Below are positions 7,901 to 50,189 of a stretch of 50,189 nucleotides of DNA, piece by piece. The DNA is from Myxococcales bacterium (GTDB taxonomy: Bacteria > Myxococcota_A > UBA9042). A program made the position numbers and the translations under genes. Where the stretch lies: positions 1 to 50,189 of the forward strand of contig JBBISH010000035.1 of assembly GCA_037441385.1 (NCBI GenBank). The letters are read 5' to 3'. The notes beneath the pieces are model-generated. The model did no database searches. It saw only the letters and a program-made list of their open reading frames with translations, and was not told the origin of the DNA. How positions within the stretch are numbered: the stretch's first letter is position 1; each line of letters starts with the position of its first letter.

Positions 7901-8031
7901 CTCGCCATCTTCCGCTGCAGGGCAGCGTGGTGGTCCGCGCCGTGGCGTGGCTCGAGACGGCGACCGGCGAGGTGCTCGCCCTGTCCGCCAGTGCGGATGG
8001 CGGCGTCATGGCCTGGACGGCGCCAAAGTAG
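4969..8031 (+). CDS. Lipoprotein with acidic linker, four MopE-like Cys repeats and WD40 beta-propeller region
   Basis: Signal peptide ending 'SASC'; Asp/Ala-rich linker; 4x CDGLDNDCDG; WD40 motifs 'GHDGPVLAVA..TAGADYTVRLWD' and 'GHQGEVTSLAW..SASTDGTVRIW'. Confidence 0.85.
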   Translation: MILPALRRPLRPPSRLGLLAWLVASASCTAPPPYHIADDDKAAADATLADTAADAAQDAAAAHDLAVAPDEVDSEVAEDVAAAENDLVPADQTADDNGPDSADGASAADAVLDAILDASAGEPGDSKAETTLEDASEPLAEVSPPADTTATAWPDAQAQDAEADALAPDSDGGPTCSASDLANLVCPKAGVCVALAAACQDGAPVCNYAGLANYQAVETACDGLDNDCDGQVDWMAAAPPKAPLPGVCGLQLMICGGESGWLLPDPLLAPAHQAVETWCDGLDNDCDGATDAGLTKTNSLVMGVCATVPLPCVQGEWLAPDYTVAGVAYEPTETACDGLDNDCDGVTDVLTGPPPPASLAKGVCTGLTKWCAGELGWQDPDLALVVGYAMGPETTCDGLDNDCDGQTDEDTSCSRWQLGGGGPGRLALSADGQRLAWLTHSGVLWLDTATGTMVGADLGRDGFAADVAISPSGKQVASVGTGETLRVVQADSAGMPGTWSTVQSWGATPPWTSVAWAPDGATLVAGDSKGQVWWWPPQGQAPQLLAGHTSAVTAIGVATAAAGASWLVSADAGGQVRARPWPAGTVKTVASLSAPVLRLATDTHGRVAVTADAQPGRVIDLTSGKLLFALQVADAVASLRFASDDQSVWGVGASGHVYQWPTPVVGGAASPGAAQVLAAPNWPAGDAAADLVLGQGMVYIAAQKSGVWRRPLGDGEWQHLGGGHLGEVRSLACSGAACLSGGDDSAVRRLSVAGLEAGALLGHDGPVLAVAAWPQGAVTAGADYTVRLWDIASAATPINFATFGLGGPWANDLSLAADALSFWAAAGPAAMRIGLQGGNATKKLQAWSSSGQVIRVALHPNDAELAVATIGPGSSASYRVLSAADLTTVWQRDDLPSGERALAWAGDRLAVAGGANYLSLLDATSGATVQELIGHQGEVTSLAWHAPSQRLLSASTDGTVRIWSAPAGKPAILLGTWSRHLPLQGSVVVRAVAWLETATGEVLALSASADGGVMAWTAPK

Positions 8032-8386: not shown

Positions 8387-20647
<12,261 letters not shown>

Positions 20648-21208
20648 CATAATCCTCTCGACGACGTGCATGCGGTCGCGGCGCGCCCCCGATTGCGTTG
20701 GTGCGGCGAGCGCCCGGTATGTACATCGGCGGCCGGCGGGCCTAGCGATGCGAAACGGAACCGTGTCGACCATCTCCGCGCTCCTGGGTCGGACTCGAGG
20801 GTGGGCCCCGTTGCCGGGGCTCGAGTCAGGGCTCGGGGATCACGATCGTCGCAGGGGATCGCGAACGACGGCAGGCACTCCCCTTTCGAGCGGCCATCCG
20901 GGTAGCAACCGCGCGGTTTTGCTTTGGAACTCCCGCGGCGGCCGGCGCGCGTCCACCGAGGGGGCGATGGTCGGGCGAAGACCGGAGTCCAAGCAAAACT
21001 TGGCGCAACTGCTACATTTTTGACCACCCCGCTGGGTGAACTGGCGGATCAGACCAGTTGGAACACCGTTGCCGACCGCAAAGGACGGTTCGGGCACTCC
21101 ATGTTGCACGGTAACAAAGCAAGGCAGGGAAGGCAAGCACTGTATGAAGTTCCGCGATGGGCAACTGCTCGGAGCCAATCATGCGACCCGCGAACTGCCA
21201 CGGAAGCG

Positions 21209-25643: not shown

Positions 25644-25801
25644 GGCAACTCCCGGTGGCAACGTGCCCCGAAGGGGCGAAAAGGGTACGGAAGAGCGACT
25701 GGAAATTCAACGACCGCGCCAAGCACTTGGCCCCGCGACTTGATCTTCTGACGGCACACTTCTAGGGTAGCACGGCGCCATTGCTGCGCCGCGAGCGCCC
25801 C

Positions 25802-26884
25802 GTGACCGCACCCGATCCGAAAACTCCCAGGGCACGCGCGACCTCCTCTGCTGCGCGCAGCCCGGCTCTTGGGGTCGCCGATGCCGCCGGGCGGGCGACG
25901 CTCGGCGAAAGCGACGACGCACGGCCGCAAACTGGCCGCTGCCGCATCAACACCGCAAGCCCGTGTGTTCATCCCTGGCCCACGCTAATTTGCCCCGTCT
26001 GCGGCCCGCTCCGCGACGCGAGCGCCAGCGCCCCCCTGCAAGCCGGTACGAGCCAGGTGCGCGGCGACGCTGAGGCGGTGCTGACGGCCATCCGCGCCGG
26101 TCTGGCAGCCGGCCACCGGCACTTCGACTTGCTGGGCGGCGAGTTGCTGCTTCGCCCCGAAGCGCTGGACCTGCTGACCCAGGCGCGCCGAGAGGGCGCC
26201 CAAGGACTGGCGGTCTGGACCGCCGGAGCGCTGCTGGCCCGCCCCGAAGCGGCCCTGCGGATCCGCCAGGCCGGCGCGACCCAGGTGGTGGTTGGACTTT
26301 TTGGCGATTCGCCCGCGGCACACGACTATGTGGCCGGCAACGAAGGCCATTTCCAAAGGGTGCTCGCGGGCTTGCGGGCCGCTCGCGCCGCCAAACTGGG
26401 AGTCTGGGTTGCAGCGCCCCTGCTGCGCCCCACATTCCGCGGGCTGCCGGGGCTGGTGCAAAAGACCTTGCCCGCTGGAGTCGCTGGCGTACACCTGTGG
26501 GCGCCGCCGGGACCCGACCGCAGCAGTCAGCCCTTGCTGGCGCCGCTGCCCCTGATGGCCCCCTGGGTGCAGGCGGCCGTGAAGATCTTGGCCACCGCCA
26601 AGCGACCATGGCGCGTCGACGGCCTGCCGGCCTGCCTCATGGGCGAGTGGGCGCGCCTGCAGCCCGAGTGGCCACAGTGGTCAGCTGCCACGCTGCCGCC
26701 GGCCAACCCGGCCGACGGGGAGCAATCTCCCCAAGAGCCCAACGAATTCTCGCCGCGGTGCGACGAGTGTACCTGGCGCAGCGGGTGTCCCGGCTTGCCA
26801 GCCCCGCGAGCGCGCAGCCACGGTTGGCTGGGTTTGCAGCCAAGGACCGATGCGCCCAAACCAGCCCAGCAAGAATTGTCCTAG
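25802..26884 (+). CDS. Divergent HxsC-like radical SAM-fold protein with non-canonical Cys motif
   Basis: 'LLGGELLLRPE', 'GDSPAAHDYVAGNEGHFQRVLAGL', 'VDGLPAC', 'CDECTWRSGCPG'; C-x8-C-x2-C in place of CxxxCxxC. Start uncertain. Confidence 0.7.
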   Translation: MTAPDPKTPRARATSSAARSPALGVADAAGRATLGESDDARPQTGRCRINTASPCVHPWPTLICPVCGPLRDASASAPLQAGTSQVRGDAEAVLTAIRAGLAAGHRHFDLLGGELLLRPEALDLLTQARREGAQGLAVWTAGALLARPEAALRIRQAGATQVVVGLFGDSPAAHDYVAGNEGHFQRVLAGLRAARAAKLGVWVAAPLLRPTFRGLPGLVQKTLPAGVAGVHLWAPPGPDRSSQPLLAPLPLMAPWVQAAVKILATAKRPWRVDGLPACLMGEWARLQPEWPQWSAATLPPANPADGEQSPQEPNEFSPRCDECTWRSGCPGLPAPRARSHGWLGLQPRTDAPKPAQQELS

Positions 26885-27007: not shown

Positions 27008-29008
27008 ATGACAGACGATCGCGTGACAATTAGCGACCTTGACGTCGACAAGCTGGTCCGCGACGGCCTGCTGAACCGCGACGAGGCCGAGGCCCTGCGC
27101 GCCAGCCATCAGGCCGAGACGGGCACCGTGCGCATGGAGGCTTTGCCGTCCACGGCCGGCAACGACTCGGGCGAAAACAAGGACTTTGTCAAAGAGCAGG
27201 CCGCCCGCCACCAACGCCACTGGGTGCGGGTGACGCGCTTGTGCAACCAGCGCTGCACCTTCTGCCTGGATTCGATGAATCAAGACGGGACCATGATCGA
27301 CGTCGAGTCGCTCAAGGCCTACATCCTGCTGGGCCGGCGCATGGGCCGCGAGCGGTTGATCCTGTCGGGCGGCGAGGCCAGTGTTCACCCCAATTTCATC
27401 GAGCTCATCCGCTACGGTCGCCAGGTCGGCTACGACTGGATCCAGACCGTGACCAACGGGATGATGTTCAGCTACAAGAAGTTCGCCAACGCCGCCGCCG
27501 AGGCGGGCCTGAACGAGGCCACGGTCTCGATGCACGGCCACACGGCGCACCTGCACGACAAGCTGACCGGCACGCCGCTCGCTTTTGTCACGGGGATCAA
27601 GGGCATCCAGAACCTGCAAGCCACCGGCAAGGTCGTAGTCAACATCGACGTGGTGATCAACAAGCAGAACTACAAGTTCTTGCCCGAGATCATCGAGTAC
27701 TACTACAACATGGGCATTCGCGAGTTCGACCTGCTGCACATCGTGCCGTTCGGCCGCGGCTTTGATGAGCACCGCCACTCGCTGTTCTTTGATCTGAACG
27801 ACGCCGTGCCGTATTTCCGCAAGGCGTTTGCCTGGGCGGACAAGCCGGGCATGTTCATCTGGACCAATCGCTTGCCGGTTACGTACTTGGAAGGCTCCGA
27901 GCGGCTCATCCAAGAACCCCACAAGCTGACGAGCGAATTCGACGGCGGCCGCCACAACTTCGAGGGCTATCTGCGCCGCGGCCTGAAGCCCGACTGCCAC
28001 GGCGAGCGCTGCGACTACTGCTTCTTGGACGGGCCGTGCCGTCAGACGCTGTTTCCCTATCGCGAGCAGTTGATGGCCCACGCATTCCCGATCGTCCGCC
28101 TGGACAGCCATCAGGTCTGGGCGGGAACGCCAGCGCGCGAGCGATTCATGGCCCAACACCCGGCGTGGCTGCAACTAACGGCCCGCACGGCCGAAGATGC
28201 CGCGGCGGCGCTGACGAATCTGCCCTTTGACAGCGCCAAGTTCTCTGTGGAATTGGACGCGGGCAGCGAGACTCAGGCGCTGGCGCAAGTGCCCGGCGTG
28301 CAGCGCGTGGTGGTCAAGACGGTGGCCGACGCGGCGCGGGCCCTGGTGGGCGATCAGGCGCTGCCGGCGCCGATCGAGGTGGAGGTCGCGGTCGACAAGA
28401 CCTTGGCGGCGTGGCTGCTGGCGCGGCCCTCGACCTGCAAGTCGTGGGGATCGCGTTTGATCGTCGCGCTGCCCAACCACGAATACTTGAGCGAGTCGCA
28501 GGCGGCCGATCCGGAGCCCGAGACGCTGCGCAAGCTGGCGCGACTGGGGGTCCGCATCAAGAACCTGCCCGAGTGCGCGGTGGGGCCTGCGGCGATGCCT
28601 GGCGATCACAGCGTGCTGGACGCCAAGCTGCTGGACGGCGCCGGCGATCTGCACCTGGATCGCTACGTGCACCACTACATCACCCGCGAGTACTACGCCA
28701 AGAGCGTGCGCTGTGGTCTGTGCAGCCGCTTTGATCAGTGCCAGGGCATCCACATCAACTACCTGCGCAACCACGGGTTCGCCCAGATGACGCCGCTGGA
28801 CGAGCAGGGGCAACCGCGCGCGGATGCTCAGGATTTTGACCAGCTGGCCGATCGATTGAAGTTCGCCAACGCCGGGCGCAGCCGCCGCGACCAGAGCCGC
28901 ATTCTGGGTCTGCATCGGCCCGAGCGGCAGGCGGTGGATGAAGTGGTGCGCACGGTCGTCGACGTTGGGTCCACGGGCGAGGCGAGACACCCCGGCGAGG
29001 TGGGGTAG
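27008..29008 (+). CDS. Radical SAM protein (HxsC-like) with second degenerate C-terminal module
   Basis: CNQRCTFC, 'LSGGEA', 'TVTNG', 'SMHGHTAHLHDKLT'; Cys clusters CDYCFLDGPC and CGLCSRFDQCQG. Confidence 0.9.
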   Translation: MTDDRVTISDLDVDKLVRDGLLNRDEAEALRASHQAETGTVRMEALPSTAGNDSGENKDFVKEQAARHQRHWVRVTRLCNQRCTFCLDSMNQDGTMIDVESLKAYILLGRRMGRERLILSGGEASVHPNFIELIRYGRQVGYDWIQTVTNGMMFSYKKFANAAAEAGLNEATVSMHGHTAHLHDKLTGTPLAFVTGIKGIQNLQATGKVVVNIDVVINKQNYKFLPEIIEYYYNMGIREFDLLHIVPFGRGFDEHRHSLFFDLNDAVPYFRKAFAWADKPGMFIWTNRLPVTYLEGSERLIQEPHKLTSEFDGGRHNFEGYLRRGLKPDCHGERCDYCFLDGPCRQTLFPYREQLMAHAFPIVRLDSHQVWAGTPARERFMAQHPAWLQLTARTAEDAAAALTNLPFDSAKFSVELDAGSETQALAQVPGVQRVVVKTVADAARALVGDQALPAPIEVEVAVDKTLAAWLLARPSTCKSWGSRLIVALPNHEYLSESQAADPEPETLRKLARLGVRIKNLPECAVGPAAMPGDHSVLDAKLLDGAGDLHLDRYVHHYITREYYAKSVRCGLCSRFDQCQGIHINYLRNHGFAQMTPLDEQGQPRADAQDFDQLADRLKFANAGRSRRDQSRILGLHRPERQAVDEVVRTVVDVGSTGEARHPGEVG

Positions 29009-29011
29009 CAA

Positions 29012-30247
29012 GTGGCGAACATCGGCTACATCCAAATGGTGCGCCACTGCAACCAGAATTGCGGCTTTTGCAGCAATCCGGAGACGCCGTTTTTCTACGA
29101 CTTCGATCAGGTCCGCACCATCGTCGACGACTTTGTGGCTCGCGACTACTTTGGCGTGATCCTGACAGGCGGCGAACCGACCCTGTCGCCGATCCTGACA
29201 GAGTCGATCCGCTACGCCCGCGAAAAGGGCCTGCATGTGCGCATGATCACCAACGGCCAGAAGATGGCCGATGGCGCGTACGTCAAAGCCTTGGCCGAAG
29301 CGGGCTTGCAGCACGTGCACATCAGCATCCACAGCTGCAAGCACCGGCTGGAAGACTTCTTGACCGGCACACCCGGCTCGCTCGCGTGGGCCGAGCAGGC
29401 GCTGCACCACCTGGCCGAGACTGACATCACCGTGAACATCAACACGGTGATCAACCGCTACAATTGCGACCACCTGCACGAGACGGTCGAGTGGTTCATC
29501 CAGAACTTCCCGTTCGTGCGGCACTTTGTCTGGAACAACCTGGACCCGTCGATTGGCCGGGCGACCAGCAACCAGTACTTTACGGCGCGGATGCAGGATC
29601 TAGAGGTGTCGCTGGCCAAGGCGATGCGCCGACTGCACGAGACCGGGCGGAGCTTCCGGGTCGAGCGCGTGCCGCTTTGCTACATGACCGAGTTCGCCCA
29701 CTGCTCGACCGAGACCCGCAAGATCGTCAAGAGCGAAGAGCGCATCGTGCACTTCTTGGACAACAAGGGCACGGTGCGCCAGACCGAGTGGGGCCACCTG
29801 TACGCCGACGTGTGCGAGCAGTGCACCCTGCGCTCGATCTGCGGCGGGCTGTTCGATCGCGGCGACGCCTACGATCCGGCCGAGCTGTCGCCGCTTTTTG
29901 TCGATCCGCGGCCGATCATCGCCAAGATCGCCCTGGACGAGCAGAGCGACCCGGCGTGGCGTCTGCAGAAATTCAAGAATCTTGCAACGCTACCCGCGGC
30001 CCACCAGGGCAAGCAGGGCAGCTATCGCGCTCCGAGCCCCAGCGCCCCCAGCGGCGAGCGGCTGGTGGAGCCGACGACCGACCCCAAGCGCCGCCAAGAT
30101 CCCACGGCGCGCGATTGGCAACCCGAAGGCTGGCACCCGGCCGACGACGAAGTGGATGCCGAAATGGCGCCGCTGCAGCAGGACCCCCCGCCTGCCCAGG
30201 CGCGGCCGCGACCGGTTTCGGTTGCTGAGCCGCGAGGCACAAGGTAG
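29012..30247 (+). CDS. Radical SAM protein (HxsC-like) with low-complexity C-terminal tail
   Basis: CNQNCGFC, 'LTGGEPT', 'ITNG', 'VERVPLC', CEQCTLRSICGG; starts 3 nt after the upstream stop. Confidence 0.9.
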   Translation: MANIGYIQMVRHCNQNCGFCSNPETPFFYDFDQVRTIVDDFVARDYFGVILTGGEPTLSPILTESIRYAREKGLHVRMITNGQKMADGAYVKALAEAGLQHVHISIHSCKHRLEDFLTGTPGSLAWAEQALHHLAETDITVNINTVINRYNCDHLHETVEWFIQNFPFVRHFVWNNLDPSIGRATSNQYFTARMQDLEVSLAKAMRRLHETGRSFRVERVPLCYMTEFAHCSTETRKIVKSEERIVHFLDNKGTVRQTEWGHLYADVCEQCTLRSICGGLFDRGDAYDPAELSPLFVDPRPIIAKIALDEQSDPAWRLQKFKNLATLPAAHQGKQGSYRAPSPSAPSGERLVEPTTDPKRRQDPTARDWQPEGWHPADDEVDAEMAPLQQDPPPAQARPRPVSVAEPRGTR

Positions 30248-32543: not shown

Positions 32544-32604
32544 CCTGCCACATAGGCACCGCCGCGCCGACCTGCTAGACTGAGGCCGCTTGCAGGAGGC
32601 CGGC

Positions 32605-33336
32605 ATGTGGCACAGAGGCGACAACTTCACGCGACGGCGCCACTTGGCGCTGTTCCTGGCGGCAACCGCTTTGGCGGCCGCACCGGCATGGGCGGATCCC
32701 GATCCTGCACCCATCCCTGATTCCGCGGCCAGCAGCCCGGCCAAAGGCGATGCGTCCGAGGCGCCCCCGCTGGCGGCACCGCAGCCGCGCCCGCCGGCTC
32801 CCGTTGACCCCGGCGCCACGCCGCAGCCGCGGCCAAAGCCAGGTGAACAGGTCAATGTCCACGGCATCGGCGTGGCCGGCAGCTTTGCCACGGGCACCGG
32901 TCTGACCTACCGCCGCTACTTTGGCAATACCTCGATCCAGGCCAGTTGCCTGGCGATCATCACCGACCGCGGCAACGAGGCCCTGGCCTTCGTCGGCGCG
33001 TCGCTGGTGCAGTACGTGCTGATCTGGCACACACCCAACTCGCGGGGGCTCATGCCGTCGACCACCGCCCTGCGCTTGACGACCGGCGCGCACTACTACC
33101 TGCGCAAAACCACCAGCACCGAGTGGAGCTTCTCGCAGGGCATCGGCACGCCCACCACGACCACGACCCGCGAGTCATCCGTGAACATCGGCGCCGGCAT
33201 CGGGGCCGAGTTCGGCGGCATCGTCGCCCCTGGGTTCTCGCTTTCGCTGGATCTGCTGCTGGTGGCGGCCTTCGATCAACAGGGCCTGTCGTACATCTTG
33301 CCGCTGCCGCAATCGGCACTGGTCTACAGTTGGTAG
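32605..33336 (+). CDS. Secreted protein, predicted small outer-membrane beta-barrel (paralog 1)
   Basis: AGGAGG RBS; signal peptide ending 'AWA'; Pro-rich linker; alternating amphipathic strands; C-terminal 'VYSW'. Confidence 0.7.
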   Translation: MWHRGDNFTRRRHLALFLAATALAAAPAWADPDPAPIPDSAASSPAKGDASEAPPLAAPQPRPPAPVDPGATPQPRPKPGEQVNVHGIGVAGSFATGTGLTYRRYFGNTSIQASCLAIITDRGNEALAFVGASLVQYVLIWHTPNSRGLMPSTTALRLTTGAHYYLRKTTSTEWSFSQGIGTPTTTTTRESSVNIGAGIGAEFGGIVAPGFSLSLDLLLVAAFDQQGLSYILPLPQSALVYSW

Positions 33337-33345
33337 GAGGCGGAG

Positions 33346-33984
33346 ATGAACAGGCAAGCGATTCTTCGGGTAATCCTGCTGACGGCGGTGCTGGCGCTCA
33401 CGCTGGGCAGCTCGGCGCAGCCGGTGCAGGCGCAGACCGCCAAGGTGCTGGTGGGGCACGAGAGCCAGGTGCAGAACAACACGCACGGTCTGGGCGTGGC
33501 CGGCGACTTCAAGGGCGGTCTGACCGGCTTTGCCTACCGCCACTACTTTGGCAACCACAGCCTGCAGGTCGACCTGCTGCCACTGTATGCCGATAGAGGC
33601 AACTACCTGGCGATGTACTTTGGCGCGCAGTACATCAACTATGCGCTGGTCTGGTCGGGGGCCCGCCGCGGCGCGCTGCTGCCCACAACCACCGCCCTTC
33701 GTTTGACCTTGGCCGGCTCGGTGCACGCCGAACGCGACCAGCAAACCGCGATCTCGGTCGACACCACCAACTGCCAGACCCAGCAGTGCAAGGACATCAC
33801 CAACGCCAAGGCGGCGGTGTCGGTCATGTACGCGGTCGCGGGCGGTTTTGGTTTCGAATTCGGCGCCGTACAGCGTTCGGGCTTCTCGGTGGCGGTCGAC
33901 TTGATGATGACCGTGCTGTGGGATCGCGTCGGCTTCTACGGCGCCTACCCGCTACCGTACGCATCGCTCATGTACTCGTGGTAA
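33346..33984 (+). CDS. Secreted protein, predicted small outer-membrane beta-barrel (paralog 2)
   Basis: AGGAGG RBS; signal peptide; shares 'HG.GVAG.F..G.T/F.YR.YFGN.S.Q', 'P.TTALRLT', 'G.G.EFG', 'PLP..L.YSW' with the upstream gene. Confidence 0.72.
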   Translation: MNRQAILRVILLTAVLALTLGSSAQPVQAQTAKVLVGHESQVQNNTHGLGVAGDFKGGLTGFAYRHYFGNHSLQVDLLPLYADRGNYLAMYFGAQYINYALVWSGARRGALLPTTTALRLTLAGSVHAERDQQTAISVDTTNCQTQQCKDITNAKAAVSVMYAVAGGFGFEFGAVQRSGFSVAVDLMMTVLWDRVGFYGAYPLPYASLMYSW

Positions 33985-40949: not shown

Positions 40950-41612
40950 ATGCAGATTCTGTACGTCGACAACCACCTGCTCGTGGTCTACAAGCCGGCC
41001 GGACTGCCCGTCCAGGCCGACGCGAGCGGCGATCTCGACTTGCTGAGCATGGCCAAGCGCTGGATCAAGCAGGAATATGCCAAGCCGGGCGAGGTCTTTG
41101 TGGGCCTGGTGCACCGGCTGGATCGGCCGGCTCGCGGCGTGGTCGTCTTGGCGCGGACCAGCAAGGCCGCCGCCCGCCTGTCGGAACAATTTCGCAACCG
41201 CACCACGCTCAAGCGCTACGAGGTGGTGGTCTTGGGTCAACCGAACCCGCCCCAGGGCGAGCTCCGCGACGAATTGCAGAGCGACGAGCGCGGAACCCGA
41301 GTGGCGACGGGCGGTGCGCCCTCGGCGCTGAGCTACCGGACGCTTGGACGACGTGGCGACCGGACCTGGCTGGGGATCGACCTGGAGACAGGCCGCAAAC
41401 ATCAGATCCGCGTGCAGTTGGCCAGCCGTGGCTGGCCGGTGCTGGGCGATCTCCGCTATGGCGCCAAGAATCCGCTGCCTGATCAAAGCATTGCCCTACT
41501 GGCGCGGCGCCTGGAGATCGACCACCCTACCCGCGACGAGCGGATGGCGTTCGACGCTCCAGACCCGCCGGGCTGGCCGTGGCAACCGAACGAAAGTCGG
41601 GACTTTCTATAG
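40950..41612 (+). CDS. RluA-family RNA pseudouridine synthase
   Basis: 'VVYKPAGL', 'VHRLDRPARG', 'ETGRKHQIRVQLA..PVLGDLRYG'. Confidence 0.93.
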   Translation: MQILYVDNHLLVVYKPAGLPVQADASGDLDLLSMAKRWIKQEYAKPGEVFVGLVHRLDRPARGVVVLARTSKAAARLSEQFRNRTTLKRYEVVVLGQPNPPQGELRDELQSDERGTRVATGGAPSALSYRTLGRRGDRTWLGIDLETGRKHQIRVQLASRGWPVLGDLRYGAKNPLPDQSIALLARRLEIDHPTRDERMAFDAPDPPGWPWQPNESRDFL

Positions 41613-41615
41613 AGA

Positions 41616-43904
41616 TCAGTCGCCGAACTTCTGGCGTGCCTCGTCGTGCCACTGCTCGGGCCAGTAGTAGAAGCCCTCGCAAGCAATTGAATACAGGCAC
41701 GTTTTGCACTTTTCTTCGTGCCGGCGCCGCGACTGCAGGTAGTCGAACAGGTTCACGTCGTCCATCGACACGAACAGCATGTGCCGCTGCAGCTTGCCGA
41801 TGTCGCTCAGCCCGTACTCCTCGTACCCGGGCATGAAGCACATGGGCAGGTTGATGACCTGAAAGCGAATGTCCTTGCCGTAGCGATCGATCAGCGCCAT
41901 AGCCTGGCGGGCCGCCTCGGCCGGGTCGGGCTGGCACTCGGCGCTGGCGCGGCCAAACGGAGTCAGGAACTGAATGTTGCAGTTCTTGACGCCCATATCC
42001 ATCAGCAAGTCGCCGTATTCCATCAAGAACGGCGTATTGATCGTGGTCAACGTGACGTTGACGCCAAAATCGAGGCCGAGTTTTTCGCACAAGGGTCGCG
42101 CGTTGCGGATGCCCGCCGTGGTTTGCACAAAAGCGCCGCGCACTTGCACGTTGCGGTCGTGGACGTCGGGGTTGGGGCCGTGGAGCGAGACCAACAAGCT
42201 GGTGATCCCCGAGCGCACGATTTTTTCAGCGTTTTTCGGGTTAGACAGCATCCGGCCGTTGGTGGTCAGGTTCACGGCGCGGTAGCCCAGCTGACGGGCC
42301 GAGCGGATGAGGCGGAACAACTCGGGATTGGTGGTCGGCTCGCCACCGTCGAAGTCGCAGAGATCAAAGCCCTGTCTGCGCCGTTCGGCCAAAAAGGCCA
42401 CCTGCTCGTCGGCCTGACCGTGCCAGTCCGAACGGTTGCCTGTCGCACAAAATACGCAATGATTGTTGCAGATGTAGGTCGTATTGACGATGACCTTGCG
42501 CGGCGCCCAAGCCTCGAGCTTGGCCTCGAAGACTTTCTTGGCCAGGGCCAAATCGTGCGGCGTCCAATCGGATCCGCGCAACAGCGGTTTGCCCTGAAAA
42601 AGCGGTCCGATGTCGCGGTCTTCGCGATTGACCCACTGGCCCTGCTCGGTCACGGTCGCGTGCAGGCGCGTGCCCAGGATCGGGGTGGCAAATTGCAGCA
42701 GCGGCCGGGCCCCCCAGCGCTCGAACAAATCCCAGGCCGTGATCAAGGTTTGCAGGATCTCGGCTCGCGTCTCAGCCGGCTGACCGATCATCCAGTGCAC
42801 GACCAGGGGCAGGCCGTGTCGCTGGCACCACTCGGCGACCCGCTCGCTGGCTTGCAGGTCAAAGCGCTTGCCAATCAGATCGTTGGCCACGCGCTCGACC
42901 GCCGACTCTGCCGAGATCGACAGCACCGGCACGCGGCCAACCATCCGCGCCACCTGGGCCTCGCTCAGGCGGTCCGCGCGCATGCCGTTGGGAAAATCCA
43001 GTTTCAAATCGTACTGTTCGGCCACATCCAACAGCGCATCAAAGTGCCCCGCATGGACATTGACGAGTTCGTCCAACACGACCCAGCGGCAGACGTTCAG
43101 CTCTTCGCGGCACACGCGGGCGTGCTCGGCCAGCAAGTCCTTGCCCATCCGGCGGTAATTCTTGCCGGGCAGTCCCTCGCGCGACCACGGGTTCGACGTG
43201 CAGAAGTTGCAGGCAAAGCTGCAGCCGCGCGAGGTCTTGACCGGCAACAGGCCGGCGCTCAAGGCAAAGATCTCTTGCTTGTGGTTCGCCTGGCCACAGC
43301 GCTCCAAGAACCGCTGATAGGCCGGCAAGTCGATCAGGTCGTAGGCTGGCAGCGGCAGCCCGTCCAAATCGTCGCCAATCGGAGCACCCAACACCAGGCG
43401 CTGTTTGGGCTTTTCTCCAGCCACCAGGCGCGTGACCACCTCTGGCAGCGCTGCATCGGCCTCGAAGCGCACGCCATAATCGGCACCGACCTCATCGAGC
43501 GCCGTGGTCTCCCACGCGATCGTGTGCATTCCCCCCACGTCGCAGTCGGCCAGCACGATCGGCGCCGGCCAACGCTCGCGCAACGACTTGCAAAGCTTGA
43601 CTAATTCCGCCGTGGCTGCGGTGGCGCGCAGCCAGGGGCTGTAGCCGATCACGGTGACGTCGGGCGGCGCAGCCGGCAGCTTGGCGAGCAGGCCCGACAG
43701 CGGCACCCCCAGCCGCAGCCACGGCGGCGATTCGAGCAGAAGCCCAGAATTGGGCTGACAAAACGCGTCGAGCACCTGCACGTGGTGGCCAGCTCTGCCC
43801 AGCGCCGCGGCTGCTTGCCACACGCCCAGGTTGGTGAAGTAGGGATAGTCGATGAAGTCGCTGGCGAGCAACAACGGCGGCTGAATCAGCAGAACACGCG
43901 CCAC
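41616..43904 (-). CDS. Fusion: B12-binding radical SAM enzyme plus second HxsC-like radical SAM domain
   Basis: N-terminal 'RVLLIQPP..NLG..AAAL..GHHVQVLDA'; 'LDGLPLPAYDL', 'TSRGCSFACNFC'; second motif CNNHCVFC with 'DGGEPT', 'TTNG', 'NLPMC', CKTCLYSIACEG. GTG 43904 after a G-rich RBS. Confidence 0.9.
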   Translation of the reverse strand: MARVLLIQPPLLLASDFIDYPYFTNLGVWQAAAALGRAGHHVQVLDAFCQPNSGLLLESPPWLRLGVPLSGLLAKLPAAPPDVTVIGYSPWLRATAATAELVKLCKSLRERWPAPIVLADCDVGGMHTIAWETTALDEVGADYGVRFEADAALPEVVTRLVAGEKPKQRLVLGAPIGDDLDGLPLPAYDLIDLPAYQRFLERCGQANHKQEIFALSAGLLPVKTSRGCSFACNFCTSNPWSREGLPGKNYRRMGKDLLAEHARVCREELNVCRWVVLDELVNVHAGHFDALLDVAEQYDLKLDFPNGMRADRLSEAQVARMVGRVPVLSISAESAVERVANDLIGKRFDLQASERVAEWCQRHGLPLVVHWMIGQPAETRAEILQTLITAWDLFERWGARPLLQFATPILGTRLHATVTEQGQWVNREDRDIGPLFQGKPLLRGSDWTPHDLALAKKVFEAKLEAWAPRKVIVNTTYICNNHCVFCATGNRSDWHGQADEQVAFLAERRRQGFDLCDFDGGEPTTNPELFRLIRSARQLGYRAVNLTTNGRMLSNPKNAEKIVRSGITSLLVSLHGPNPDVHDRNVQVRGAFVQTTAGIRNARPLCEKLGLDFGVNVTLTTINTPFLMEYGDLLMDMGVKNCNIQFLTPFGRASAECQPDPAEAARQAMALIDRYGKDIRFQVINLPMCFMPGYEEYGLSDIGKLQRHMLFVSMDDVNLFDYLQSRRRHEEKCKTCLYSIACEGFYYWPEQWHDEARQKFGD

Positions 43905-44097
43905 GAGTCCCCCGGCCGGCTGGTGCGTCGAATGGAACCCGCGCGTGTCGGGTGCGACGTCGCCTGTGCCAGTATCCTGGGGGCCGCGAGCGGTGGCAAG
44001 GTACAGACGGCAAGGGTTGCCCGCTGTTGCAAAATCGTCCGCACTGGCCGGCTTGCAACCCCTGCTGGCCGCGGCTACTTTGGGGCCAGGAGGGCGT

Positions 44098-47000
44098 GTG
44101 TATCCCAATGCCTACCCACATCGGCCGACCGCGCCCAAGGCCTTGCCCCAACTGCTGATCGGCGTGGTCGCGCTGCTGGCGCTGTTGACGGCTGCCCCAG
44201 TGCACGCCTGGAGCGCGCGCAAAGTGGCGCCCGCCGGATCGAAACGCCGGCCTGCAACCCACGCGGCTCTGCCGCCAGCGGCCGAGTTGACGCTGGGCGA
44301 GCGCTGCCAGGCTGCCACCGGGCGATCGCCCCCCAATGTCGCGGAAGTGCTCGCGGTACTGCGGGCGGCCATGGCGGCGCGCGAGACGGCGTGCGGGCGC
44401 GATCTGGTGGCTCGGCTGCTTTTGGCCAAGGCCTCTCCGGCCCAATTGATCGAGGCCGGACAACTACTTGCGACCGATCCGTTGGGTCTGCCCGTGTGGA
44501 AACTGGCGTGGCAAAGCGGGCGGCGGCGGCCCCTGTGGGTGCGCCAAACCGGCGAGGGCTATGCCGACGCACTGCTGGCCCAAGGGGATGCCGAGGCTGC
44601 CCGAGTGGTGGTCGAGGCCGCTTTGGCGCAGGCGCCGGCCGGCACGCGCCGCGGTCTGTACGAGCGCGCAGCGGCGATCGCACGGCTGCAGGGCAAGGCG
44701 AGCGACGTGGCCGACGAGCTGAGCGTGGCCAGCGATCCAGACGCACAGGTGGTCGCCGCGCAGCTGATGGTCGAGCTGGGCCGCGACGAGGACGCCACGG
44801 CCACGTTGCGCAAAGCGTGGCAGCGGTATCCCGGGCACCGGGCGCTGCAGGCGGCGTTCATGCAGCTGCTGCAGCGGCTGGGTGTGCGCGACGAATTGCG
44901 ACAGCTGGTGGATCAGGTGGTGCGCCTGGCGCCGGCCGACCCGATGCCGTTGCTGACCGTACTGGATGCCCATATCGCTGCCCGCGACGCCCGCGCAGCG
45001 CGGGCCTTGATCGACGAGATGGCGCGGCGGTGGCCACAGCACGACCAAATGCTCGAGTCGCTGATCGATCGCGAGCAACGGCTTGGCGATGACCCGGCGC
45101 GCATCCGCACGTTGTACGAGCAGTTGCTGGTCGCCAGCCACCAGCAGCCGCAGTACTTGTTGGCCTACGCCGAGTGGCTGCTCAGCCACGGCGACAGCCG
45201 CGCGGCGCAGGCGGTGCTGGTGCGCCGGCCTGGCAAGGGCGAGCCAGTCCTGGAAGGGCTGATTCGTCAAGCACAACTGCTGATCGGCCACCGCATGGTG
45301 GTCGAGTCGCGCGAGCCGATCGAGCGGGCGGCCGCGCTGGCGCCCACCGATCCGCGGGTGTTGCGGCTGCAGGCCCAACAGGCCGAGCTGGAAAAGAATT
45401 TCCCCAAAGCCGAAGCGATCTGGTTCGGTCTGACCAAGCTGGGCGACGCGGCGAACCCTGCCGAGCGAAGGCGCGCGGCCGATGGGCGCCAGGCGCTGGT
45501 GGGGCTGTGGCGGCGGATCGACGTGTTGGCCCAGCGCACAGTCCAACTCGTGGCCGAGCTGCAAAACCAAGAGCCAACCCTTGGAAAAGCCCTGCTTTGG
45601 CTCGACGCAAGTGCGCAGCTGGACGAAGGCGCAAGCGTGCCAGGCTCGACTCTGGCGACGCTGCTGCCGCGCCTGCGCAGCAAGCTGGGTCCTGATCCCG
45701 AACTGCTGGCCGGACTTGTCAGCCTGGAACTGAGCCGCGGCCACGACGACGAAGTGGTCGCCTATTTGATGGACTTGCGCAGCGCCGACCCGGATGCCGC
45801 AGAACCCCTGTTGCAGCAAGCCCTGGAACACTGTCTGGCGCGAGGCCGGCGCGATTTGGCGGCTCCGCTTGAAGAGGCGCTGGCCAGCCTGGGTCAATCC
45901 GCGGCCAGCTTGGTCAAGCTGGGCGACTTGCACCTGCGCTACGGCGATGTCGCAGGCGCGACCGCGCTGTTCAAGCGTGCGGCCCAGGCAGAGCGGGGCG
46001 ACACGCGGGCTACCGCGCGCTTGGCGGCGATGTTCCGCAAGGCGGGCGAGGTGGCCGAAGAAGAAGCGGCGCTCCGCGATATCGTGGTGCGAACCTCCGA
46101 TGCCGACGAGCTAGAGGGGGCCGGTCAGCGCTTGATCACCGTGGCACTGGCGCGCGGGTCCGTCGCCGAGTTGGTGCGCTGGCTGGACGCGGTGGCGCCG
46201 CAGCACCCGCGGCGCGAGATCTTGGCCCGCTTGCGATCGAGCGCGCACGACGCGTGGCTGCGCACGGCCAGCCTGGACCAGGCCTTGGGGCATCCCGACC
46301 GCCTGCCACCTGCGGGCGACTTGGCCCAAGCGTTGGCGAGCGGTGACTTGGCCCTGCAGGTGCGGGCCCTGCGCGAGCTGGCCCTGCAACACCGTATGAT
46401 TCCAGTCAGTCTGGCCAAGAGCTTGCTGCAGAGCCCCAACCTGGTCTTGCGCCGCGACACCGCGTTGGCCCTGGGGGCAGCGGGCGTGCCAGCGGCGGCC
46501 GAATTGCTCCGCGACGTGATGGCCGAAGGCAGTGACCGCGACGAAGACGTGGTGGCCGCCCAGTTGGCTGCCTTGGCCCATCTGCCGGCCGTGCCTGGGA
46601 TCGATGCCGCCGTTCTGCCGCTGGTGAACCGCGGCGACCCGCTGGTGGTGCAGCTGGCGCAGCTGGTTGCGGGCGCCAAAGGCGGTACGGCAGCCGCGCC
46701 GGCGCTCATGGTCGGTATCCAGACGCCGCGCCGAGACATGGGGGCCGCCGCTCTCATCGCCTTGGGGGCCCTGGTGGGGCGCAACCCAAGCGACCCGAGC
46801 TTGGCGTCGGCGCGGGCGCTGCTGCTGGACCGCGGCGAACGCCTGCAGTGGTCGGGCACCGAGATTCCCCGCAACCTTGCAACCATGTGGGGTTTGCGCG
46901 CCTCTGGCCTGCAGCGGGCCGGGGTCTTGCTGCTGCGGACCGCCGTGGAGTCCGAGAGCTTGCTGCTGCGTCGGGCGGCCGTGGTCTTGCTGGCGCGGCG

Positions 47001-47280
47001 CAGCGCCCCTGAAATTCGGCTGCAATTGCCCGAAATCGGCGATGCGCAAGCGATGGCCAACCTCCGCTTTTCGGCGCGGCGCGACAATCTGGCCGACATA
47101 CTGGCAGGTGGTGAGGCCGAAGTGGTTGCAGCGCTTGTCGAACTTGGCCCGCAGTTGCGGCCCCTGGTCGAACAGCGCGCAGCCAACGACCCAACCTGGC
47201 GTAGCCGTTGGTGCGCGACCTGGCCGGAGTTACCCGCGGGGCAGGCGGCATGGTCGGCGGTCTGCCCGTCGACACCGTAG
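44098..47280 (+). CDS. Secreted TPR/HEAT-repeat alpha-solenoid protein
   Basis: AGGAGG RBS, GTG 44098; signal peptide ending 'VHA'; TPR-like 'LVKLGDLHLRYGDVAGATALFKRAAQ'; HEAT-like 'LLQSPNLVLRRDTALALG'. Confidence 0.78.
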   Translation: MYPNAYPHRPTAPKALPQLLIGVVALLALLTAAPVHAWSARKVAPAGSKRRPATHAALPPAAELTLGERCQAATGRSPPNVAEVLAVLRAAMAARETACGRDLVARLLLAKASPAQLIEAGQLLATDPLGLPVWKLAWQSGRRRPLWVRQTGEGYADALLAQGDAEAARVVVEAALAQAPAGTRRGLYERAAAIARLQGKASDVADELSVASDPDAQVVAAQLMVELGRDEDATATLRKAWQRYPGHRALQAAFMQLLQRLGVRDELRQLVDQVVRLAPADPMPLLTVLDAHIAARDARAARALIDEMARRWPQHDQMLESLIDREQRLGDDPARIRTLYEQLLVASHQQPQYLLAYAEWLLSHGDSRAAQAVLVRRPGKGEPVLEGLIRQAQLLIGHRMVVESREPIERAAALAPTDPRVLRLQAQQAELEKNFPKAEAIWFGLTKLGDAANPAERRRAADGRQALVGLWRRIDVLAQRTVQLVAELQNQEPTLGKALLWLDASAQLDEGASVPGSTLATLLPRLRSKLGPDPELLAGLVSLELSRGHDDEVVAYLMDLRSADPDAAEPLLQQALEHCLARGRRDLAAPLEEALASLGQSAASLVKLGDLHLRYGDVAGATALFKRAAQAERGDTRATARLAAMFRKAGEVAEEEAALRDIVVRTSDADELEGAGQRLITVALARGSVAELVRWLDAVAPQHPRREILARLRSSAHDAWLRTASLDQALGHPDRLPPAGDLAQALASGDLALQVRALRELALQHRMIPVSLAKSLLQSPNLVLRRDTALALGAAGVPAAAELLRDVMAEGSDRDEDVVAAQLAALAHLPAVPGIDAAVLPLVNRGDPLVVQLAQLVAGAKGGTAAAPALMVGIQTPRRDMGAAALIALGALVGRNPSDPSLASARALLLDRGERLQWSGTEIPRNLATMWGLRASGLQRAGVLLLRTAVESESLLLRRAAVVLLARRSAPEIRLQLPEIGDAQAMANLRFSARRDNLADILAGGEAEVVAALVELGPQLRPLVEQRAANDPTWRSRWCATWPELPAGQAAWSAVCPSTP

Positions 47281-47464
47281 CGGTTTTTGCCCCCCAACCC
47301 TTTGGCAGTCTGGCCGCACGTTGGTATGCTAGGGGGATCAGGCTCGGCACCGCCGCAGTCGTGGCACCGAGTTGGTGGGCCAGTCCCACCTTGCCCTGCC
47401 CAAGGAGCCCCTCATGTACCAGTCCCCGTGGTCCGTCCAGGCGGAGTTCAGCACGGAAAAAACC

Positions 47465-50189
47465 ATGACTAACGTAGGGTTGAAGCACTCAGCCCGGCGC
47501 TGGGCGTGGCTGGCACTGGCGGCCGCGCTGGCGGTCCTGTCGGCGGCCTGCGGCAAGACCATCACCGACTACGACAATCTGTATCTCTCGATTACTTCGG
47601 ACAAAACCGACGCACCGATTACCCTGCTGGATTTCGACGTCGCCAAAGTCTCGCCCTCTGACCCCAACGCCATCATCAAGCCCAAGGCCAGCGGCGAGGG
47701 CAAGTTCCAGGTCACGCTGCCGGCGGGCTGGGTGCTGTCCAGCACGGCGTTCCGCGTGCAAATGAGCCCGTCGGCCGACTGGACCGGCGCGGCGACCTTG
47801 CGCATCTTGGGCCGCGACAGCAACGGCGGGATTCGCGCCACTTGGTTTGGCGTCATCAACACGAGCAACAAGACCGAGATGGCCATTCGCCTCGTGTCGG
47901 TCACGGCCAAGAACAATTGCGATCAAGACGGCGACGGCGTACCGGCGTGCACGGTGGAGTGCAAGGCGCAAAAACCGCTGTGCGACTGCGACGACGACCC
48001 CACTCCAGACCCGGCGCATGGCAACACCCCCAAGGGCGCCCGCTCCAGCCCGTTCCTGGTCGAAGACACCTGCCTGGACGCCAACAACGGCATCGACGAA
48101 GACTGCCAAGGCGGCGATGCGGCGGCCTTGGACAGCGACGGCGACAAGGACCCGGACTGCATCGAGCAAAAGCAGTGCCCAACTGTGGGCGGCGTTCCAC
48201 CCGAGAAGAACCCGGCCATCTACCACGGTGCGGCCGAGCTCTGCGACGACATCGACAACAACTGCGACGGCAAGGTCGACGAGGGCATGGCCTTCATCGA
48301 CGGCGACGGCAGCATCAAGACCGGCCTGACCAAGGGCGACAAGTGCGGCCTGGGCGCCTGCGCGACCGATCCCCAAGGCAAGCCCGGTGCCGTAGTATGC
48401 AGCGCCGACCAGAAGAACCTGGTGTGCTCGACGGCCGGCCAGAAGAAGCCCGAAGAATGCGCCAACAAAATCGACGACGACTGCAACGGCCAAACCGACG
48501 AAGGCTGCGAAGCCGACGATTTGGACGGCGACGGCGCGTCGAACAAGCTGGAGCAGGCCTGTGCCTACAAGTACGCCGCTTTCCACGCGGAGTACAACCC
48601 GAACATCAAGAAAGAAGAAGAGAAGTGCTGCCCGCCCGACCAGGATTGCTCGCCGGCCTCGGGCTTGTGGGACTTCAACTGTGACGGCGTGGTCACCCCG
48701 TGCCCGGCCGACGACCCCGACGGCGACGGCAAGACCGGCGCCCTGGACTGCGCGCCCAATGACCCGCAAGTCTATGTAGGCGCAAAGCAAATGTGCGGCG
48801 ACGGCAAGGGCCCGTGCCCAGCCGACGGCGACGTGCCCTGCAACGACGACAAAGACGGCGACAAGTACAACGGCGACGTGGATTGCGACAACAACGACCC
48901 GAACATCCACCCGTTTGCCACCGAACTCTGCAACGGCAAGGACGACGACTGCGACGGCCTGATCGACGAGGGCAATCCCGAAGGCGAGGACAAGGAATGC
49001 GGCAACCCCAATGGGGATTGCGGCTTGCAGAAAGGCAACTTGGTATGCAAGCACTTTGTGGCCAAGACCAGCGACTTCAAACCTGACGACCTGGACTGCG
49101 GCAAGGCGGTCTATCAGCCCCTGGGCGACGGCAAGACCGGCGTCTGCGTGGGCTGCTACGGCGACTACCGCCCCAAGAAAGAGACCTGCGACGACCACGA
49201 TCAGGACTGCGACGGCCAGACCGACGAGGACTTCCCGTACCTGGAAGAAGGCAGCGGCAAAGCCAAGTTGTGGGGCGAGGCCTGCGACGGCGTGGGCACT
49301 TGCGGCGCCGGCACGGTCCAGTGTGCCACCTTGGCCAAGGCCATCTGCTCGTCCGACCCCGGCGGCAAGATCGACCAGAGCAAGGCCGAGACCTGCAACA
49401 ACCTGGACGACAACTGCAACGGCAAGACTGACGAAAACCTGACGAGCGTGCAAGACAGCAAGTGCGAGAAGGTGGGTGTCTGCGGCGCGGACGTGGGCAG
49501 CATCTCGACCATTTGTGTCGCCGGCATTTGGCGTTGCGACTACAGCAAGGTGCCCAAAGTCGAATTCAACAAGACCAAGACCTGCGCCGAGGGCAGCCCG
49601 TCGTGCCAGTGCGACGCCACCGCCGGCAGCTCGCCCAGTTGCTACGCCATGGTCGAGTCGAGCTGCGACGGCGAAGACAACGACTGCGACGGTCAGACCG
49701 ACGAGGACTTTGACTACAGCGACTGGGACGGCAAGCTGCTCAAGATCACCCAGACTTGCGGCACCGGCGCCTGCGTCGGCGGCAAGGTCATCTGCCAAGG
49801 CGGCGGCAACGGCAACGGCAAGCTGGACTGCGACAGCCTGACCAAGGTCACCAAGGAAAAGTGCAACAGCGTCGACGACGACTGCAACGGCAAGACCGAC
49901 GAGTTGAGCGCGATGCCGATCACCGATTCGACCTGCTGGCTGGTCGGCGTCTGCAACCCGAACAACGTGGGCTACAGCTGCCCGGCCGGCAAGTGGCTCT
50001 GCGACTACAGCGGCGTGCAGAACTTTGAAAACGGCAAAGAGATCAGCTGCGACGGCCTGGACAACGACTGCGACGGCAAGACCGACGAGGACTTCGAGTT
50101 CGCCGACTTTGACGGCAGCATCCGCCACGTGGGCGACGGCTGCGGCACCGGCCTGTGCGCCAGCGGCAAGACCGTCTGCACAGCCGACA
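47465..50189 (+). CDS. Large Cys-rich lipoprotein with MopE-like repeats (3'-truncated; absent from the ORF track because it has no stop)
   Basis: ATG 47465 translates as MTNVGLKHSARRWAWLALAAALAVLSAAC (lipobox), a beta-rich domain, then repeats such as ELCDDIDNNCDGKVDEG, CNGKDDDCDGLIDEG and SCDGLDNDCDGKTDED; frame appears open to the window end. Confidence 0.9.
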   Translation, partial: MTNVGLKHSARRWAWLALAAALAVLSAACGKTITDYDNLYLSITSDKTDAPITLLDFDVAKVSPSDPNAIIKPKASGEGKFQVTLPAGWVLSSTAFRVQMSPSADWTGAATLRILGRDSNGGIRATWFGVINTSNKTEMAIRLVSVTAKNNCDQDGDGVPACTVECKAQKPLCDCDDDPTPDPAHGNTPKGARSSPFLVEDTCLDANNGIDEDCQGGDAAALDSDGDKDPDCIEQKQCPTVGGVPPEKNPAIYHGAAELCDDIDNNCDGKVDEGMAFIDGDGSIKTGLTKGDKCGLGACATDPQGKPGAVVCSADQKNLVCSTAGQKKPEECANKIDDDCNGQTDEGCEADDLDGDGASNKLEQACAYKYAAFHAEYNPNIKKEEEKCCPPDQDCSPASGLWDFNCDGVVTPCPADDPDGDGKTGALDCAPNDPQVYVGAKQMCGDGKGPCPADGDVPCNDDKDGDKYNGDVDCDNNDPNIHPFATELCNGKDDDCDGLIDEGNPEGEDKECGNPNGDCGLQKGNLVCKHFVAKTSDFKPDDLDCGKAVYQPLGDGKTGVCVGCYGDYRPKKETCDDHDQDCDGQTDEDFPYLEEGSGKAKLWGEACDGVGTCGAGTVQCATLAKAICSSDPGGKIDQSKAETCNNLDDNCNGKTDENLTSVQDSKCEKVGVCGADVGSISTICVAGIWRCDYSKVPKVEFNKTKTCAEGSPSCQCDATAGSSPSCYAMVESSCDGEDNDCDGQTDEDFDYSDWDGKLLKITQTCGTGACVGGKVICQGGGNGNGKLDCDSLTKVTKEKCNSVDDDCNGKTDELSAMPITDSTCWLVGVCNPNNVGYSCPAGKWLCDYSGVQNFENGKEISCDGLDNDCDGKTDEDFEFADFDGSIRHVGDGCGTGLCASGKTVCTAD

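Follow-up and report, generated by a model that had tools for sequence, protein, structure and literature searches.

Introduction

The canonical HXS system, whose genes follow one another as HxsD-HxsB-HxsC-HxsA, is an anti-phage system of Pseudomonadota, the phylum in which 99.7% of HXS systems have been placed, and it blocks the entry of phage DNA (Li et al., Nat Commun 2026, PMC13128918). N-terminal processing of HxsA and a mass change of +8 Da in E. coli both require HxsB, HxsC and HxsD; the change falls on an SHRSS motif, is read by the authors as +C/-4H and involves no B12 domain, and HxsC binds HxsD (PMC13128918). In our literature searches the canonical four-gene system was the only one found to have been studied. 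A 'type 4' Hxs system is already catalogued through the NCBIfam models HxsA4, HxsC4 and HxsD_rel; the searches found no paper on it, or on a fusion of a B12-type radical S-adenosylmethionine (SAM) enzyme with an HxsC-like one. Here we describe a gene for such a fusion, the focal gene, in a window of 50,189 nucleotides (positions 1 to 50,189 of contig JBBISH010000035.1, assembly GCA_037441385.1) from a Myxococcales bacterium of the Myxococcota_A. Its product most likely takes part in modifying a small protein of His-Gly-Ser repeats, within a myxobacterial system that is related to HXS but larger.

This relative differs from the canonical system in its host phylum and in having at least five radical SAM proteins against two. 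Its substrate type also differs: HxsA4 consists of a leader and about 15-25 HGS repeats ending in Trp, and has no visible peptidoglycan-binding domain. We consider it probable that the focal gene encodes a bifunctional accessory maturase of this myxobacterial HxsA4-type His-Xaa-Ser system. In what follows, the genome from which the window comes is called the own genome; C-numbers denote its contigs, L-numbers the loci examined and G-numbers the sampled genomes of the phylum.

Results

The focal gene in hxs operons and its co-occurrence with HxsB

The first-pass annotation had described the gene as a detached member of an Hxs-type pathway and had proposed looking for orthologues within hxsB clusters elsewhere. 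Such orthologues were found in four loci. In L068, one strand carries in succession genes for a radical SAM protein (618 aa), two HxsC-like proteins (647 and 345 aa), the focal orthologue (770 aa), a further radical SAM protein (341 aa), HxsD, HxsD_rel and HxsB, the last three scoring 55.2, 59.4 and 506.1 bits, respectively. These scores are read against NCBIfam cut-offs of 50 bits for HxsD (TIGR03976), 41 for HxsD_rel (NF038315) and 370 for HxsB (TIGR03978); those used below are 267.9 for HxsC (TIGR03977), 500 for HxsC4 (NF038332), 55 for HxsA4 (NF038313) and 500 for AprD4, and the Pfam cut-offs are 29.5 bits for Radical_SAM and 32.1 bits for B12-binding (PF02310). L070 has the gene order of L068, which is also the order of the cluster in the window with the focal gene and one extra radical SAM gene in place. 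In L044 and L045, HxsD and HxsB come first and the focal orthologue follows them, so that the fusion occupies the slot of HxsC in the canonical HxsD-HxsB-HxsC order. The long open frames of these two loci were considered as a triple fusion of HxsB with the focal protein and rejected, since no CxxxCxxC motif beyond the two of the focal protein occurs in the frame.

Across the 78 loci of the related-locus comparison, a convincing HxsB lay within 10 kb of a full-length orthologue in 13. The gene for the long HxsC-like protein of the window cluster (P0002) has counterparts as the divergent neighbour of the focal orthologue in six loci, and 2.8 kb away from it in one more.

The phyletic survey covered 401 genomes sampled across the phylum, the focal protein being counted at E <= 1e-60. 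The focal gene was present in 90 genomes and HxsB in 144; both occurred in 90, HxsB alone in 54 and neither in 257, while the focal gene without HxsB was seen in none of the sampled genomes. Within families where both genes are patchily distributed, the two coincide: in f30 each gene occurs in 3 of 23 genomes, the same three, and in f19 the two occur in 7 and 9 of 29. Operon membership in relatives and the accompaniment by HxsB in 90 of 90 genomes support the placement of the gene, detached as it is in the window, within an Hxs-type pathway.

Small proteins ending in at least 11 HGS repeats and a terminal Trp are encoded in six related loci. The own genome has a single (HGS)n-Trp open reading frame (ORF) of 104 aa, C47:39825-40139 (+) (L101:11826-12140), which NF038313 recognizes as HxsA4 at 91.6 bits. 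HxsA4 was detected in 134 of the 401 genomes; of the 144 HxsB-positive genomes 130 have it, and of the 90 focal-positive ones 86 do. In the window itself there is no cluster-encoded His-Xaa-Ser repeat substrate, HxsA4 being on another contig: a six-frame scan for ORFs with at least three HxS motifs found none near the cluster or the focal gene, and two HxS-motif ORFs elsewhere in the window were set aside as chance matches opposite the strand of a 4128-aa gene. The HxsA model TIGR03979 gave three weak matches in the own genome, none above its cut-off and none near the window.

The HxsA4 gene on C47 adjoins a gene resembling that of the CCA-adding enzyme and lies away from all radical SAM genes. 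Its leader carries a DFLSxxE motif, which recurs in the HxsA4-like ORFs of L068, L070, L081 and L039.

Integrity, conservation and architecture of the fusion

The ORF spanning 41616..44108 (-) is stop-free and would give 830 aa from its outermost TTG. The 762-aa reading from the GTG at 43904 is likewise uninterrupted, and orthologues align from query residues 1-3, which makes 43904 the likely start. The gene converges on one for an RluA-family pseudouridine synthase (40950-41612) and diverges from a tetratricopeptide repeat (TPR) gene (43945-47280). A second assembly, a Logan contig 11,975 bases long, agrees with 41400-44100 throughout (0 differences, 0 gaps) and so excludes a frameshift between the domains, the run behind it possibly being the source sample and not an independent one. 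Full-length orthologues are present in independent metagenome-assembled genomes at 92% and 89% identity. This was the only run listed as carrying the sequence, and no RNA run was among those listed.

The single 762-aa frame with a B12-like N-terminus, as the first-pass annotation had it, is thus sound, with no stop or frameshift between the domains, and the motifs lie where that annotation had placed them (Table 1): CSFACNFC at residues 228-235, CNNHCVFC at residues 479-486, and a tail made up of NLPMC (685-689) and CKTCLYSIACEG (733-744). The four-cysteine tail is presumed to be the site of an auxiliary [4Fe-4S] cluster. Pfam detects Radical_SAM in two stretches of the protein (93.1 bits). 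An AlphaFold2 model, built on an alignment of 57 sequences (A1) that also served to define invariant columns, has a mean pLDDT of 89.6 and a pTM of 0.87.

Table 1. Coordinates of the focal gene, its domains and the genes of the hxs cluster in the window
Feature	Position	Strand	Basis or remark
Whole gene, 762-aa B12-like / radical SAM / HxsC-like radical SAM fusion (P0001)	41616..43904	-	
Rossmann-type B12-binding-like domain, residues 1-170	43395..43904	-	PF02310 and fold matches
First radical SAM core, residues 215-445	42570..43262	-	CSFACNFC at 43200-43223
Second radical SAM core, HxsC-like, residues 468-690	41835..42503	-	CNNHCVFC at 42447-42470
Four-cysteine tail LPMC...CKTCLYSIACEGFYY, residues 686-746	41667..41849	-	Conserved cysteines
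HxsC-like paralogue, first cluster gene	25781..26884	+	Cx8CxxC replacing CxxxCxxC; LPAC...CDECTWRSGCPG tail intact
Long HxsC-like radical SAM protein, 666 aa (P0002)	27008..29008	+	
Short HxsC-like radical SAM protein, 411 aa (P0003)	29012..30247	+	HxsC 106.6 bits, cut-off 267.9
HxsD, 148 aa	30324..30770	+	TIGR03976 59.8 bits, cut-off 50
HxsD-like protein, 78 aa	30789..31025	+	NF038315 68.6 bits, cut-off 41
HxsB radical SAM/SPASM maturase, 504 aa	31029..32543	+	TIGR03978 499.8 bits, cut-off 370

A word-indexed protein search returned 1066 proteins at E <= 0.001 among 8000 scored candidates, and the best 120 were examined. In this set, 112 homologues have lengths of 755-822 aa, with query coverage of 96-100%; the remainder are seven proteins of 1054-1102 aa and one 460-aa fragment. 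When the 120 were aligned with the query (121 sequences), C228, C232 and C235 were retained in all 121, and C479, C483, C486, C689, C733, C736 and C742 in 120, the single miss being the 460-aa fragment; retention at this level places the motifs beyond chance. The homologues bear the database names 'radical SAM protein' or 'MoaA/NifB/PqqE/SkfB family radical SAM enzyme', apart from the Minicystis rosea orthologue, the only one listed as 'Radical SAM domain heme biosynthesis protein'. Against the focal protein, every NCBIfam model stays below its cut-off; by these sequence comparisons the protein is a member of a conserved Myxococcota family that has no curated model.

The modules of the protein also occur in other combinations. 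Beside the B12-type radical SAM module followed by the C domain, L036 encodes a 1069-aa protein in which a third radical SAM module is appended, giving three CxxxCxxC motifs, and in G042 and G030 the C domain is fused to the third module while a separate gene for the B12-type module lies elsewhere in the genome. Short stand-alone relatives of the C domain were also considered as split genes and rejected; nearly all of the 163 matches are family fragments from contigs 1-2 kb long, and not one bears the name HxsC. Two radical SAM cores in one polypeptide are known from FbiC, a CofG/CofH fusion, and from MJ0619. The likeness to these proteins lies in the two CxxxCxxC cores in one chain; the domain families are unrelated, and the parts of the focal fusion are also encountered as separate genes and joined anew to a third HxsC-like core. 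The first-pass annotation had called two intact radical SAM domains in one chain uncommon. This does not hold here, as the own genome has two more tandem HxsC-like ORFs and relatives carry three-core forms.

Relation of the C domain to HxsC

Canonical HxsC was represented by three proteins from plasmid hxsD-B-C-A loci. Each carries a single CxxxCxxC and, terminally, CxxCx5CxGFF; [LI]PxC stands about 25-45 residues ahead of the latter in two of them. The C domain has the same cysteine layout, one CxxxCxxC followed by an xPxC...CxxCx5CxG tail, in the form of CNNHCVFC, LPMC and CKTCLYSIACEG, and an [LV]PxC...CxxCx5CxG tail is common to the three HxsC-like proteins of the window cluster. Its likeness to canonical HxsC therefore comprises the CxxxCxxC core, the ensuing NLPxC...CxxCx5CxGF[FY], HxsC4 as best curated match, the position of the gene beside HxsD and HxsB in relatives, and its presence in genomes together with HxsB and a protein of His-Xaa-Ser repeats. 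It differs in forming a clade of its own, in scoring below both cut-offs and in being fused behind a B12-like radical SAM module.

The best curated matches of the C domain are HxsC4 (117.4 bits), NirJ2 (85.4) and AhbD (79), and HxsC matches residues 475-692 at 72.8 bits. Across the ORFs of the whole genome none reaches the cut-off of HxsC (best 108.9 bits) or that of HxsC4 (best C74:30350-31294, 208 bits). In a profile search of the Protein Data Bank (PDB), residues 472-690 matched BlsE (5e-15), then GDGT-MAS, SkfB, PqqE, viperins and MoaA; Foldseek with the C half gave viperin (TM score on the target 0.72), BlsE (0.60), SkfB and MoaA. The description of the domain as HxsC-like thus stands for the cysteine layout and the tail, but not for membership of the curated HxsC or HxsC4 families.

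In a quick maximum-likelihood tree of 67 domain sequences, with SH-aLRT values as the only support, 12 C domains of the focal type form one clade (SH-aLRT 91). This clade stands apart from those of the long and short HxsC-like proteins of the window cluster (27008-type and 29012-type), from the C48-type and 'third radical SAM' clades, and from canonical HxsC (SH-aLRT 100); the HxsB-type SPASM enzymes lie across a weakly supported branch (85). The phylogenetic comparison with the two cluster proteins, which the first-pass annotation had proposed, places the C domain in a separate orthologous group that is sister to neither.

A predicted complex of the C domain with HxsD scored 0.35 (runs 0.27-0.40), in the weak-scoring range, against 0.00 for the best of three controls; the runs shared at least 47% of contacts, with a partner pLDDT of at least 66. 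Of 157 solved complexes 116 reached the mark applied to such predictions, as did 2 of 215 mismatches, but at scores of 0.60 or less these were only 18 of the 157 and both mismatches. The model thus lends weak support to binding of HxsD by the C domain. HxsD is conserved adjoining HxsB in 12 of 15 loci.

As a separate observation, myxobacterial HxsD has a C-terminal extension with an invariant DPLxI..WE (D128, P129, L130, I132, W136 and E137 in the numbering of the window protein) in an alignment of HxsD from 14 Myxococcota loci (A2).

The N half: cobalamin or an AprD4-like scaffold

By sequence and predicted fold, the N half resembles the class B architecture of a Rossmann domain before a radical SAM barrel. 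The class B enzymes MgmA (9ccb), TsrM (6wte), TokK (7kdx), CysS (9n1d) and OxsB (5ul4) show the same order, Foldseek relates them to the N half with E-values of 1e-9 to 5e-13, and NCBIfam B12/radical SAM families match as well. Unlike them, the focal protein stays below every curated cut-off, has a borderline Pfam B12 match and carries a second radical SAM enzyme. The nearest solved relative is AprD4 (6fd2), a radical SAM 1,2-diol dehydratase that is not known to carry cobalamin. It came first for residues 223-464 in a profile search of PDB sequences (1.2e-21), ahead of MgmA (5.7e-11 over residues 219-423) and weak matches to TsrM and TokK, and also leads by fold (TM score on the target 0.68-0.70). 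The two share 18-19% identity, and AprD4, whose substrate is an aminoglycoside, lacks a second core.

A possible, if somewhat unlikely, alternative follows from this relationship: the focal enzyme would serve the same pathway with an N half that is no cobalamin methyltransferase, its Rossmann domain being a cofactor-free scaffold as presumed for AprD4, and its first core would carry out a non-methylating radical reaction on residues of the repeats, for example dehydration, oxidation or C-C/C-N cross-linking of Ser or His. The NCBIfam AprD4 model scores 50.4 bits, and PF02310 gives 29.8 bits over residues 23-156 by hmmscan, slightly below its cut-off, and 32.8 bits in a genome-wide six-frame search. 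In the canonical system, the change of +8 Da is made with no B12 domain (PMC13128918). Against this alternative, cobalamin methylases match nearly as well as AprD4 does, MgmA with a TM score of 0.67 and TsrM, TokK, CysS and OxsB behind it, and the best NCBIfam match of the N half is a B12-binding/radical SAM family, TIGR04072 (64.6 bits). Residues P10, D19, Y20, P21, D46, G66, G125 and H127 of the B12-like domain are invariant in alignment A1, and D19-Y20-P21 lie in the loop after strand 1, which is where B12 domains meet the corrin. The organism itself, judging from its genome, uses cobalamin: a single cobalamin riboswitch scores 35.5 bits (gathering score 31.5), and 13 ORFs match B12-binding at or above the Pfam cut-off.

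On sequence and model, the choice between a cobalamin-dependent methylase and an AprD4-like step without cobalamin is evenly balanced. Of the class B methyltransferase proposed by the first-pass annotation, a class B-like domain architecture is retained; the coupling to methylation is unsupported as it was put, AprD4 being the best solved match.

Evidence against membership of the pathway and further alternatives

A number of observations weigh against the focal gene being a maturase of the Hxs pathway with a cobalamin-type and an HxsC-type half. In the window the gene is monocistronic between unrelated RluA and TPR genes, and in its own family (identity of at least 57%) the conserved neighbours are TPR (16 loci) and MopE-motif genes (13 loci), not hxs genes. 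In most sampled genomes it is on a different contig from HxsB, and in G230, a complete-looking genome, the two are about 795 kb apart on one contig. The 54 HxsB-positive genomes without the gene belong here too, and make it an optional accessory, not a core component. The related genomes surveyed are not independent, and a Fisher p value overstates the association. The C domain falls far below the HxsC and HxsC4 cut-offs, with the heme-pathway enzymes NirJ2 and AhbD scoring between the two families, and the backbone of a tree that held no curated non-Hxs outgroups is unresolved. In the N half, residues 1-200 gave no significant match to solved cobalamin domains by sequence, the B12-binding domain scores close to the Pfam threshold and AprD4 is the top structural match.

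Some of these points would also fit an enzyme unrelated to Hxs, a stand-alone two-step radical enzyme for heme or tetrapyrrole, lipid or another cofactor, whose co-occurrence with HxsB would reflect the shared ancestry of large myxobacterial genomes. The isolation of the gene in the window, the TPR and MopE synteny conserved in the close clade, the heme biosynthesis name of the Minicystis rosea orthologue, and the presence of NirJ2, AhbD and a lipid B12-radical SAM family among the matches are all in line with it. We nevertheless judge it quite improbable: no genome among the 90 lacks HxsB although HxsB occurs in only 144 of 401, and the coincidence extends into patchy families; co-directional hxs operons hold the gene in L068, L070, L044 and L045; and the tail motif is that of HxsC, while the scores of heme and lipid families are far below their cut-offs. 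That one core is catalytically silent, a substrate-binding or scaffold module like the pseudo-radical SAM paralogues, is highly improbable. A degenerate core does exist nearby (25781-26884, with Cx8CxxC), but among orthologues of 40-92% identity neither the two CxxxCxxC triads nor the glycine-rich GGEP stretch in the second core varies, and in the split forms the halves are encoded separately, each with its motifs intact.

The hxs cluster of the window and other features

In the window, unrelated genes separate the focal gene from HxsB, which is encoded 9.1 kb away on the other strand. The description of this cluster as Hxs-type was correct, HxsB, HxsD and HxsD_rel all scoring above their cut-offs. 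PADLOC 2023, whose set holds no Hxs model, gave only weak generic viperin-type radical SAM matches in the window. The first cluster gene, with its altered core motif, may encode a pseudo-radical SAM protein or one with an unusual cluster site. HxsB is directly followed by two paralogues with signal-peptide-like N termini, 32590-33336 (+) and 33346-33984 (+), which are 36% identical. The last residues of each are YSW, reminiscent of the HGSW terminus of HxsA4; neither matched any family, and homologues were found only in the closest relative, L010. They were considered as candidate substrates.

Elsewhere in the own genome, 37 places match HxsC or HxsC4 weakly, a large expansion of paralogues over many contigs. 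The tandem ORFs mentioned above, C59:13624-15591 and C60:3658-5700, each hold two complete HxsC-like modules, with two CxxxCxxC and two CxxCx5CxG motifs. A second HxsB at C57:1902-4541 (L102; 491.2 bits) adjoins a divergent RlmN/Cfr-like radical SAM methyltransferase, which scores 220.3 bits against TIGR00048 (cut-off 290). The carbon that RlmN/Cfr-class enzymes transfer derives from a methylene group, a point of relevance to the unexplained +C in the +8 Da change of the canonical system.

Three large proteins of the window carry a MopE-type putative metal-binding motif: a 4128-aa ORF at 8387-20773 (-), matched in 25 stretches (675.9 bits), a WD40-repeat protein of 1020 aa at 4969-8031 (+), and a protein of at least 939 aa at 47372-50188 (+), which together with the 1111-aa TPR protein keeps its synteny with the focal gene throughout the family. 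In L068, 3 kb beyond the hxs operon and after a 2-oxoacid:ferredoxin oxidoreductase pair, a gene at 18600-20981 (+) encodes a protein of 793 aa that contains a peptide beta-hydroxylase domain of the aKG-HExxH type (79.7 bits; cut-off 40).

Discussion

As a bifunctional accessory maturase of the HxsA4-type system, the focal protein would hold three [4Fe-4S] clusters, two of them SAM-cleaving: both cores would bind [4Fe-4S] and cleave SAM to the 5'-deoxyadenosyl radical, and both would act on the same substrate, HxsA4. The C domain would perform HxsC-type chemistry, probably with a partner of the HxsD family, and the N half would contribute a second radical step. Our leading guess for this step is a cobalamin-dependent C-methylation or another one-carbon addition to residues of the repeats, the alternative being an AprD4-like reaction without cobalamin; a B12-type module fused to an HxsC-type module would be well placed to supply the residues of the repeats with carbon. 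In the lineage of the window, the gene would have moved 9 kb from the cluster and be transcribed alone.

A more far-reaching picture, which we regard as unlikely, is that the B12-type radical SAM, HxsC-like and third radical SAM modules make up one multi-core radical assembly that rewrites the poly(His-Gly-Ser) chain, one repeat after another, through carbon insertion from methylcobalamin and cross-links. The product would then be a new type of histidine-rich, extensively modified polymer with no counterpart among known ribosomally synthesized and post-translationally modified peptides (RiPPs), and metal capture or envelope defence may be its role in Myxococcota besides, or instead of, phage exclusion.

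The chemistry of the HXS system, a change of +8 Da on one HxS motif, is unsolved, and that the four-gene system blocks the entry of phage DNA has only recently been shown. The Myxococcota version is much larger, with one (His-Gly-Ser)n-Trp substrate and at least five radical SAM proteins, the fusion among them. Together with its natural split and triple-core variants, the fusion may offer a handle on how HxsC-type enzymes act on repeats and on the source of the extra carbon. Members of the pathway can sit away from the cluster, as do the substrate gene and several paralogues on other contigs, and this matters for genome mining based on adjacency.

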